The notes below the pieces were generated by a model, which worked only from the letters and a program-made list of their open reading frames with translations, did no database searches and was not told the origin of the DNA. The translations under genes were made by a program, and so were the position numbers. From a virus (lineage: Duplodnaviria > Heunggongvirae > Uroviricota > Caudoviricetes), in the IMG/VR virus record IMGVR_UViG_2721755711_000001: a DNA stretch of 46,733 nucleotides. The stretch is one strand, 5' to 3'. Below, piece by piece: positions 21,989 to 23,320 of this stretch. Numbering within the stretch: position 1 is the first letter of the stretch; the number at the start of each line of letters is the position of its first letter.

Positions 21989-22206
21989 TTCAGTGATGAT
22001 ATACGTTGTATATTTCTGATACAGATGTATACACATATTTAAAACTGAACACCAAATATATTTTTGATGTCTGAAAAACTGTCGTTAGTATTCTGACTGG
22101 TCCGGAAGGTGGTTGTCTTTATGTTCACAGGGGTGTTGCTTGCCACCGGAAAGACCAGTGCTGGCTTTCCTGGTAATTCGTGTGATTCCGGAAGCCAGCA
22201 CAGTAT

Positions 22207-22281
22207 GCGGGTATCGTATAATGGCTATTACCTCAGCTTTCCAGGCTGATGATGCGGGTTCGATTCCCGCCACCCGCTCTC
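22207..22281 (+). tRNA. tRNA-Gly (anticodon UCC), left-arm copy, slightly degenerate
   Basis: Cloverleaf readable by eye: acceptor GCGGGTA, T-arm GCGGG-TTCGATT-CCCGC, anticodon loop TTTCCAG; A7-C66 mismatch; 3' end reads CTC, not CCA. Confidence 0.55.
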
Positions 22282-23166
22282 CAGTAAAACTGATGAGTCA
22301 TAGCTTTATTATCAGCACTGGCGAATTTTCGTGAAGAATCTGGTTGCGGACACTTTATTTTCTTCATTCTGTAATGCCTGGCCGGTTACAGTTTCAGTGC
22401 TGTGTTTTTTACATTGTTAATGGTATGCGTTATCAGAATGAGTCGTCGCCTGTACCGGGGCCTACGATTCGTCAGAATTGCGGTTGCAGGTTGACGACTC
22501 ATTCTGATACCGATAATTCGATACAAGTAATCCTGCTTAACTCTTACATGATGAATGCGTTAGCCCGTCTCCTGACGGGCATTTTTTTATCCATACACAG
22601 GGTTCGTACCGGCGGACCTTTTTCACATCTGTGTCCTGTACACACCACATCAGAAAACACCAGATAACACCACACAAAAGGTATCTGCGGGTGCCTTTGA
22701 CGGGGTGTTTTTTTTAAAAAAACACCCCATCAAAGGCACCCGCAGATGCCTTTTGTGTGGTGTTATCTGGTGTTTTCTGGTGTGGTGTGTGCAGGACACA
22801 GATGTGAAAAAGGTCCGCTGGTACGAACCCTGTATATGGATAAAAAAATGCCCGTCAGGAGACGGGCCAGAGCATTCATCGTGTAGTAATAGAATTATAT
22901 TTATATATGGTCGCCACCAGAATGAGTCGTCAACCTACAAAGCCACCCTGGCTTACTGTACGTGTGCGCATGGAACAGGTAACGACTCATTCTGCTAACG
23001 ACGTTTACAAGTAATAATCACATACCATTATGTAATACAAAAAAAGCAGCACTGAAACTGTAACCGTTCAGATATTACAGCATGAAGAAAAACAATAGTA
23101 CCTACAAAGCTGTTCTCCGCGAAAATTCGCCAGTGCTGATAAAGCTATGCCTCGTTTGTTTTACAA

Positions 23167-23241
23167 GAGAGCGGGTAGCGGGAATCGAACCCGCATCATC
23201 AGCTTGGAAGGCTGAGATAATAACCATTATACGATACCCGC
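23167..23241 (-). tRNA. tRNA-Gly (anticodon UCC), glyT-like
   Basis: Minus strand GCGGGTATCGTATAATGG...CTTCCAA...GCGGGTTCGATTCCCGCTACCCGC; perfect acceptor stem; closely resembles E. coli glyT as recalled; 3' CTC instead of CCA. Confidence 0.7.
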
Positions 23242-23244
23242 ATA

Positions 23245-23320
23245 TGGTGCCGACTACCGGAATCGAACTGGTGACCTACTGATTACAAGTCAGTTGCTTT
23301 GCCTGCTGAGCTAAGTCGGC
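23245..23320 (-). tRNA. tRNA-Thr (anticodon UGU)
   Basis: Minus strand GCCGACTTAGCTCAGCAGG...ACTGACTTGTAATCAGT...CCAGTTCGATTCCGGTAGTCGGCACCA; encoded CCA; 3 nt from tRNA-Gly. Confidence 0.7.

Follow-up and report, generated by a model that had tools for sequence, protein, structure and literature searches.

Two threonine/glycine tRNA cassettes, one apparently eroded, in defective lambdoid prophage fragments joined head to head

Background

The chromosomal thrU-tyrU-glyT-thrT cluster of E. coli is located upstream of tufB and its genes all encode the 3' CCA end, as do, to our knowledge, all E. coli chromosomal tRNA genes. Bacteriophages of the lambdoid type carry tRNA genes of their own, and tRNA cassettes in their late-operon leaders are already known. 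Stx phages carry the ileZ-argN-argO tRNA genes. Phage SfI has tRNA-Thr(UGU) and tRNA-Asn(GUU) genes downstream of Q. A bias towards ACA codons has been reported for SfI, for which tRNA genes including Thr(UGU) were described downstream of Q and a role in ACA decoding was proposed; phages Sf6, ST64T, PS3 and P21 likewise carry one or both of the two SfI genes (PMC3636060). The Stx2f phage phi467 carries a Thr(UGU)-Gly(UCC) pair with a 3-nt spacer; its two genes score as thrU and glyT do (73.8 and 64.9 bits, respectively).

Here we analyze a stretch of DNA of 46,733 nt (hereinafter the window), in which two distinct defective lambdoid prophages are joined head to head, each with a Thr/Gly tRNA cassette. 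The cassette is the same pair with the same spacer as in phi467 (91.7% match over 240 nt), and its position is shared with the late-leader tRNAs of the SfI type and of Stx phages: after the Q region, before the lysis genes, and on the late-transcribed strand. Three features distinguish the window from these known cassettes: (i) both of its cassettes are cut off from lysis and structural genes, (ii) the left cassette has lost its tRNA-Thr and has a damaged tRNA-Gly, and (iii) neither Gly gene has an in-register CCA, a rare state in viral copies. We consider it quite likely that a host-derived Thr/Gly cassette was present in two prophage lineages, was already eroded in the left one, and that the two copies were juxtaposed by truncation and joining independent of the tRNA genes.

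Results and Discussion

Composition of the window and origin of its two arms

The left fragment, on the plus strand, starts at the end of an IS110 element (about position 6378) and comprises the early and Q regions of a phiP27-like/Stx-phage-like prophage, including the CI repressor, replication, Q, porin and methylase genes. The right fragment, on the minus strand, is a 5.3-kb piece of another lambdoid prophage with hok and a DUF1133 Q-like gene, the latter preceded upstream by the DUF1367 and YbcO genes. The remaining part (28058-46733) is an island adjoining serW that includes a Cah/Ag43 adhesin gene. The features surrounding the two cassettes are as follows.

18416-18799, plus strand: Q antiterminator gene of the left fragment (from the ORF list; native loci with the same gene order have a 127-aa PF06530 Phage_antitermQ product here)
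20942-21988, plus strand: DNA methyltransferase gene (PF01555, N6_N4_Mtase), the last protein gene before the left cassette
22280-22715, plus strand: left late-operon leader, with serial terminator-like hairpins at 22313-22410, 22563-22588 and about 22667-22715, the last ending in T8 (terminator scan)
22716-23168, minus strand: right late-operon leader, orthologue of 22280-22715 (from the inverted repeat and native relatives)
24040-24582, minus strand: DUF1133 Q-like antiterminator gene of the right fragment (PF06576 with faint PF06530 at native loci; from the ORF list and native gene lengths)
28057/28058: far end of the right fragment, an abrupt junction without microhomology, beyond which the sequence is internal to an IS3-family orfA in the serW island

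The earlier note, made from the letters of the window only, had placed the tRNA genes on two arms, and this wording proved apt: an imperfect palindrome, centred at 22715, extends from 22184 to 23264. Its inner arms (22545-22714 and 22716-22885) are 94% complementary over 170 nt with a 1-nt spacer, and its outer arms, reaching 22184 and 23264, are 84-93% complementary.

Each arm has close relatives among native prophages. A native prophage in GCA_005399705.1 matches the left arm (20001-22716) with 100% identity, and the right arm (22715-28057) is 99.9% identical to relatives L022 and L019, prophages in GCA_014889175.1 and GCA_014105865.1, whereas the two arms share only 75-79% identity with each other. 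In native relatives (20 of 20 contigs), a methylase or Q-like gene is followed by the tRNAs, an approximately 430-nt leader containing serial terminators, and the holin_8, holin_3_7 and endolysin genes; the cassette strand is the late-transcribed strand. The exact protein of the left methylase was matched in 80 index blocks; in each of the 10 contigs shown, the sequence runs on into holin genes. In native phages, the left leader likewise has a fourth terminator further on, followed by the holin gene; neither of these was found in the window, where the Q side is present on both arms. Because each arm matches its own native prophage type, with the cassette ahead of the holin genes, sequence comparison identifies the two tRNA sets as orthologous modules that stem from two phage lineages, and not as paralogues that arose in place. 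Of the initial suggestion that a functional and a pseudogenising paralogue are present, the degeneracy of the left set relative to the right one stands, whereas the paralogy does not, since the arms match different prophages at 99.9-100%.

The head-to-head junction

The two fragments meet at the following position.

22715/22716: head-to-head junction T8|A7 at the centre of the quasi-palindrome, where each phage sequence ends with the T-run of the same terminator

Both T-runs have their native lengths (left, T8; right, T7). The native sequence past the T-run, which is the same in both phage types and starts with ACGGGCCGACAG, followed by the fourth terminator and the holin gene, is wholly missing. 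The right arm differs from its closest relative at four positions; two of these are no more than 35 nt away from the centre and disrupt the palindrome. A match spanning the junction was found in none of 5426 complete E. coli genomes and, by megablast, in no phages or plasmids; the exact junction 27-mer or 33-mer gave no match in the GTDB representative genomes, in IMG/VR or in the JGI metagenomes. The chimeric IS-fragment ORF, considered with three alternative starts, has no exact protein match. No native inverted repeat able to mediate the palindrome by homologous recombination was found within 4 kb of the cassette in relatives L001 or L002. The junction is either a private (illegitimate) rearrangement or an assembly error.

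The latter explanation, namely that two separate prophages, each proceeding in the source genome to its own lysis genes, were mis-joined at the start of their shared downstream repeat, deserves attention, and we regard it as possible, if somewhat doubtful. The sequence past the T-run is common to both phage types and thus represents a repeat that an assembler could mis-join, and all 20 native contigs proceed to the holin genes; however, both phages are cut at one and the same nucleotide, none of this repeat is included, and graph assemblers normally need reads across a junction to produce such a join. The private nature of the join, seen in no other genome among the collections searched, would fit an artefact, as would the second abrupt junction without microhomology at 28057/28058, the far end of the 5.3-kb right fragment. 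A quasi-palindrome with zero spacer is expected, from SbcCD biology, to be unstable in E. coli, which also favours a mis-join. On the other hand, each arm retains its native T-run length, two of the four right-arm differences break the palindrome close to its centre, and the remaining window looks like a plausible rearranged island, with the prophage block bounded by the IS110 end at 6378 and the IS3 fragment.

A more specific version of a real event is that in both prophages a chromosomal break fell on the final T of the same intrinsic-terminator U-run and that their upstream halves were then joined. We consider this version improbable. If true, it would mean that a terminator-linked fragile site made a 1.2-kb quasi-palindrome that E. 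coli tolerates. The U-run would be the site where late-leader transcripts end. The conclusions on the tRNA genes given below hold whichever reading of the junction is adopted, because they are based on the native relatives of each arm.

Host origin, usual state and proposed role of the cassette

The sequence relationships indicate that host thrU and glyT gave rise to the cassette, which has lost tyrU and the spacer. The right tRNA-Thr differs from K-12 thrU at 3 of 76 positions, and the Gly genes differ from K-12 glyT at 6-7 of 75 positions. In contrast to the chromosomal cluster, phage cassettes lack tyrU and the 116-nt spacer and have Thr and Gly fused with a 3-nt spacer, and the sequence upstream of them is unrelated to the thrU promoter region. 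Chromosomal matches in Salmonella and Klebsiella cover Thr-Tyr-Gly in two pieces. The fused Thr-ATAT-Gly arrangement was observed in at least 120 IMG/VR contigs, and IMG/VR contigs also include larger arrays that combine Met(CAT), Arg(UCU) or Lys(UUU), Thr and Gly. Complete E. coli genomes contain roughly 1600 Thr-Gly places outside the chromosomal cluster.

Of the contigs with the intact cassette, 85 were analysed: the CCA of tRNA-Gly is in register in 82 and the anticodon loop is CTTCCAA in 83. The acceptor pair 6:67 is C:G in 42 and T:A in 37 of the 85, a compensated change that speaks for purifying selection acting generally on the cassette.

In intact phages, the cassette is an accessory module of the late-operon leader, flanked by the Q antiterminator region and the holin gene. 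It is presumably transcribed within the Q-antiterminated late transcript, from which host tRNA-processing enzymes would cut the tRNAs, and the released tRNAs may supplement the decoding of ACA and GGA/GGG codons; the role proposed for ACA decoding in SfI is the one that we suggest for the tRNA-Thr(UGU) of the window. In a small sample of genes, the frequency per 1000 codons is 10-16 for ACA and 9-13 for GGA in phage genes, compared to 7.5 and 9.5, respectively, in four neighbouring host genes. This puts ACA and GGA at 1.3-2 times the host frequency, a modest excess in few genes. Neither fragment of the window retains late genes, so the supposed benefit for phage translation cannot operate here.

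The right cassette

The right cassette consists of the following features, the Rfam tRNA model RF00005 having a gathering score of 29.

23169-23241, minus strand: tRNA-Gly(UCC) with an intact cloverleaf (ARAGORN; RF00005, 65.4 bits)
23245-23320, minus strand: tRNA-Thr(UGU), thrU-like, with encoded CCA (ARAGORN; RF00005, 65.0 bits)
23321-23384, minus strand: leader hairpin immediately 5' of tRNA-Thr, GGTTCC-GA-GGG...CCC-GA-GGAACC (fold z -2.9; pair counts over 17 variants)

The earlier note had described this pair as adjacent genes with good cloverleaves. Both genes are called by the predictors and both have the anticodon loops of thrU and glyT, but neither is pristine. The tRNA-Thr has three D-arm changes relative to thrU, including a C13:A22 mismatch, its sole non-pair, and scores 65.0 compared to 73.8 bits; its 3' end is GGCACCA. 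The tRNA-Gly has a compensated T6:A67 pair, a G10.U25 pair and no in-register CCA (TCTCTT), and its sole non-pair, U13.U22, is also present in glyT. It differs from the left tRNA-Gly by U18 and U25, the left one being marked by U32, G38 and C66. The 270-nt tRNA region is identical in three relatives (L016, L019 and L022). The right cassette is probably still functional, though it carries rare derived defects.

The left tRNA-Gly

The left cassette retains one gene that is called as a tRNA.

22207-22279, plus strand: tRNA-Gly(UCC), degenerate (ARAGORN; RF00005, 54.3 bits, E-value 4.8e-9)

Compared with the glyT cloverleaf, this gene has one extra non-pair, A7:C66, and its anticodon loop is TTTCCAG, whereas both the right tRNA-Gly and K-12 glyT have CTTCCAA. 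Both changes had been pointed out beforehand and are seen as described. The predictors, proposed as a check, accepted three genes and scored the left Gly below the right one: it is about 11 bits lower by Rfam, yet well above the family threshold of 29. Neither of the outcomes named in the note as refuting it was thus seen. Its D and T loops are those of glyT. The U32.G38 and U33-A37 positions can pair, and the minimum-free-energy fold has a 7-bp anticodon stem with a 3-nt loop. The U32, G38 and C66 variants are absent from 83 of the 85 intact viral copies, with G38 found in one.

The CTC ends of both Gly genes and the CCA end of tRNA-Thr, reported in the same note, are also present. Whereas glyT ends in ...CCCGC-T-CCA, both Gly genes of the window end in ...CCCGC-T-CTC, and the difference is a 2-nt insertion, TC, ahead of CCA, which changed GCTCCA to GCTCTCCA on the left and was mutated on to TCTCTT on the right. 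The absence of an in-register CCA, which sets the Gly genes of the window apart from the genes of the chromosomal cluster, is rare among intact viral Gly copies (3 of 85). The suggested comparison with chromosomal thrU and glyT separates the left loop and the CTC end from glyT; the right tRNA-Thr also differs from its chromosomal counterpart, at three D-arm positions. The loss of the encoded CCA is not disqualifying, because the host CCA-adding enzyme could add the tail. The left tRNA-Gly retains what we take to be the E. coli GlyRS identity elements (G1:C72, C2:G71, G3:C70, U73, C35 and C36), and hence could still be charged.

The left tRNA-Thr remnant and the leader hairpin

Two hairpins precede the left tRNA-Gly.

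22096-22159, plus strand: left leader hairpin with a GGAA/GGAAA purine-rich internal loop, ending at the 5' end of the Thr remnant (fold)
22160-22203, plus strand: tRNA-Thr(UGU) remnant, a hairpin and no longer a tRNA (alignment to tRNA-Thr; fold)

The Thr remnant, GCTGGCTTTCCTGGTAATTCGTGTGATTCCGGAAGCCAGCACAG, has 44 nt and aligns with both ends of tRNA-Thr around a 32-nt internal gap. The deletion removed the D and anticodon arms; both acceptor strands are kept, and the T arm is represented only by its 3' half, GATTCCGG. Neither ARAGORN nor the Rfam tRNA model makes a call here. The acceptor-T-arm minihelix is the "top half" of tRNA and is recognised by RNase P and the CCA-adding enzyme; it is defined by a coaxial acceptor and T stem of 12 bp, a cap formed by the 7-nt T loop, and a 3' NCCA end. 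The earlier note was right that the left tRNA-Thr is reduced to a remnant, but a clean minihelix of this kind is not what is left: the stem of the remnant is interrupted by two bulged T residues, the place of the T loop is taken by a 14-nt segment with further pairing, and the 3' end is ACAG. It folds as a single imperfect hairpin of 16-18 bp (-19 kcal/mol, z -4.1).

Relative to intact tRNA-Thr, two acceptor pairs of the remnant show compensated changes, from C3:G70 to T:A and from A5:T68 to G:C. Across eight variants, which are few and closely related sequences, 94% of cells are paired and two pairs are changed on both sides. In E. coli C41 both bulges of the hairpin are gone and the pairing is retained, and in the ETEC-type lineage (L026 and L034) 3 of 16 hairpin pairs are broken.

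The inner helix of the left leader hairpin shows covariation over 11 variants, with 85% of cells paired and a covariation score matched by none of 500 shuffles, the pairs being counted on user-specified structures. RNAalifold gave no consensus for the mixed leader-hairpin alignment, because its register differs between the two hairpin classes. A search of the leaders and the palindrome against Rfam identified no known RNA: the palindrome gave only spurious matches to microRNA precursors, and the leaders gave a weak AgvB-like terminator match (18-22 bits compared to a gathering score of 56).

Two other assignments of the leader hairpin were considered and rejected. A hammerhead-like core (CUGANGA) has a U that is not conserved (CCGAGGA in the window), and there is no Rfam ribozyme match. 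The similarity to the upstream Arg/Lys tRNA of the larger arrays is too weak for the hairpin to be regarded as a remnant of that gene.

Decay of the left-type cassette

The left type is the rarer one: it was found in 9-10 IMG/VR contigs compared to at least 120 contigs of the intact type, which is thus more than 10 times commoner. Of 5426 complete E. coli genomes, 47 have the left-type leader and the Thr remnant. Relatives of the left cassette are arranged below by increasing damage (Rfam scores are those of tRNA-Gly).

phi467: Thr intact; Gly intact with CCA; 64.9 bits
L026 and L028: Thr hairpin remnant; Gly intact with CCA; 65.6 bits
Left arm of the window, L024 and L035: Thr hairpin remnant; Gly with U32, G38 and C66; 54.3 bits (window) and 51.6 bits (L024)
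L042: Thr hairpin remnant; Gly with U32, G38, C66 and, in addition, C62T; 46.8 bits
L051: Thr hairpin remnant; Gly with U32, G38, C66 and, in addition, G53A; 45.6 bits
PapRG-04-4 (L001): Thr hairpin remnant; Gly with, in addition, a 1-nt deletion in the 3' acceptor strand and no ARAGORN call; 36.4 bits
E. coli EC11 (L025): Thr scrambled; Gly nearly all deleted; no call
E. coli NWU_3 (L033): Thr replaced; Gly replaced

Across the relatives, the Rfam tRNA-Gly scores step down from 65 through 62, 54, 52, 47, 46 and 36 to none. Independent and differing disruptive hits on one background are a signature of relaxed selection, and the state of the left cassette fits such selection on a dispensable gene, because prophages with eroded cassettes still have complete late regions. 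By their structure and variation, the left tRNA-Thr and the left tRNA-Gly lineage have the characteristics of tRNA pseudogenes, and we interpret the left cassette as largely a pseudogene. As in other tRNA pseudogenes and tRNA-derived hairpins, the left Thr keeps the acceptor strands and lacks the D and anticodon arms; in contrast to them, the stem of the remnant is better kept in some lineages than simple neutral decay predicts, and is eroding in L026 and L034. This conservation of the stem could mean a retained structural role instead of pure decay. In one lineage, an anticodon shift is observed in place of decay.

It is also conceivable that the left cassette is a functional variant, in which the tRNA-Gly with U32 and G38 has altered decoding and the Thr hairpin forms, together with the leader hairpin, an element for processing or stability of the late transcript. 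The gene scores 54 bits against a threshold of 29, is called by ARAGORN and has D and T loops identical to those of glyT; but the U32 and G38 changes, missing from 83 of 85 intact cassettes, permit the 7-bp stem and 3-nt loop in the minimum-free-energy fold, and sublineages have gathered further disruptive hits, some of them ending without a gene. As for the hairpins, the remnant has a z of -4.1, is 94% paired in eight variants with two pairs changed on both sides, shows two acceptor pairs compensated relative to intact tRNA-Thr, and is bulge-free and still paired in E. coli C41, while the leader hairpin covaries. However, the ETEC-type L026 and L034 break 3 of 16 hairpin pairs, and the pair counts carry little weight, coming from few and closely related sequences. 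Altogether, we regard a functional left variant as unlikely. As a lesser variant, the Thr-derived hairpin and the conserved tandem-GA leader hairpin might represent functional RNA punctuation of phage tRNA arrays.

Under the preferred reading, that of an eroded cassette, the state of the left arm was inherited from the left phage lineage, because the 211-nt left tRNA region is identical in 10 other assemblies. The late regions of these assemblies are complete, and therefore the erosion predates the window and is compatible with an otherwise complete prophage. The perfect conservation of the left cassette in at least 10 assemblies reflects recent spread, not necessarily neutrality. An inverted duplication of one cassette at this locus with subsequent decay of one copy is hardly credible: it would explain the exact symmetry around 22715 and the 94% complementarity of the inner 170 nt, but the arms are 99.9-100% identical to different natural prophages and only 75-79% to each other, their flanking genes differ (Q, porin and methylase on the left, DUF1367, YbcO and DUF1133 on the right), and the decayed state is unchanged in at least 10 genomes that have no inverted partner.

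Conclusions

Apart from the fusion point, the locus represents ordinary phage biology, and the exact junction is its sole potentially surprising element. What the comparison adds is a documented decay series of a host-derived tRNA cassette in lambdoid prophages, leading from the intact state to copies without CCA or with single mismatches, then to a hairpin remnant, and in the end to deletion. Together with the anticodon shift of one lineage, this series indicates that such tRNAs are dispensable and undergo fast turnover. For genome annotation, it means that some of the tRNA-Gly calls in such prophages are probably pseudogenes.

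Junction and ends of the prophage fragments

The left and right arms belong to two different prophage fragments that are joined head to head at the same terminator T-run end, and this join produces a 1.2-kb quasi-palindrome without a spacer.

22545-22885: head-to-head join, centre 22715/22716

This junction was not found in any other genome searched. An IS110 end at about 6378 marks the start of the left fragment, and the right one, 5.3 kb long, ends abruptly within an IS3-family orfA at 28057/28058. No lysis or structural genes are present in the window. Rfam also gives matches away from the junction: adjoining isrK and C4 antisense RNAs (57.9 and 82.9 bits) within the Rha/Ash (antirepressor-like) region of the left prophage, and an IS102 RNA (65.4 bits) immediately upstream of a Cah/Ag43-type autotransporter gene (34876-37728).

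13875-14063 (+): isrK and C4 antisense RNA
34624-34860 (+): IS102 RNA

RNA structures flanking the tRNA cassette

The 5' end of tRNA-Thr directly abuts the 3' end of a leader hairpin of about 64 nt, which is common to phi467 (a Stx2f phage with an intact Thr-Gly cassette) and about half of the cassette-bearing IMG/VR contigs; loci with it include L029, L055, L068 and L070. The consensus reads GGTTC-YGAR-GGG...CCC-YGAR-GAACC; the tandem G.A/A.G in it is invariant and has covarying Y-R pairs on either side, with pair 9-64 occurring as CG (8) and UA (6), and pair 12-61 as GC (8), GU (6) and AU (3). Rfam contains no family matching this hairpin.

22096-22159 (+): leader hairpin, left arm
23321-23384 (-): leader hairpin, right arm

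Each late-operon leader of the window, which runs from tRNA-Gly towards a holin gene that is missing here, carries three serial terminator-like hairpins; native phages have a fourth. A hairpin with 20-nt arms is conserved in both leaders. The GCCCGTCTCCTGACGGGC-T7 terminator of each is covered by a weak match to AgvB, a prophage small RNA (18-22 bits versus a gathering score of 56). AgvB contains a CA-rich motif mimicking GcvB targets, but this motif is mostly absent from the window leaders; a CA-rich repeat, CACCAGAAAA, lies immediately downstream of the terminator, and relatives have 1-4 copies.

22313-22715: left leader
22716-23120: right leader
22428-22447 with 22493-22512: conserved hairpin, left
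22910-22930 with 22982-23002: conserved hairpin, right
22519-22587 (+): weak AgvB match, left
22843-22892 (-): weak AgvB match, right

Anticodon shifts in phage tRNA cassettes

In one lineage with the tRNA-Thr remnant (L032, E. coli C41), the gene derived from glyT has turned into a tRNA-Arg(UCU), which is an anticodon shift inside a phage cassette. The anticodon loop is CTTCTGA, acceptor and T-stem pairs are altered with pairing retained, and CCA is encoded.

NZ_CP127252.1, locus 1066-1141: remoulded tRNA-Arg(UCU), also in KU052038.1

Other phages (IMG/VR loci L053, L058, L103 and L108) carry longer arrays composed of Met(CAT), Arg(UCU) or Lys(UUU), Thr(UGU) and Gly(UCC). Some of these include degenerate members, called 'tRNA-???' by ARAGORN in L103; for the one in L108, ARAGORN reports nothing. 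Since the Arg and Lys genes of the longer arrays have a common backbone, they indicate a second case of anticodon shift.
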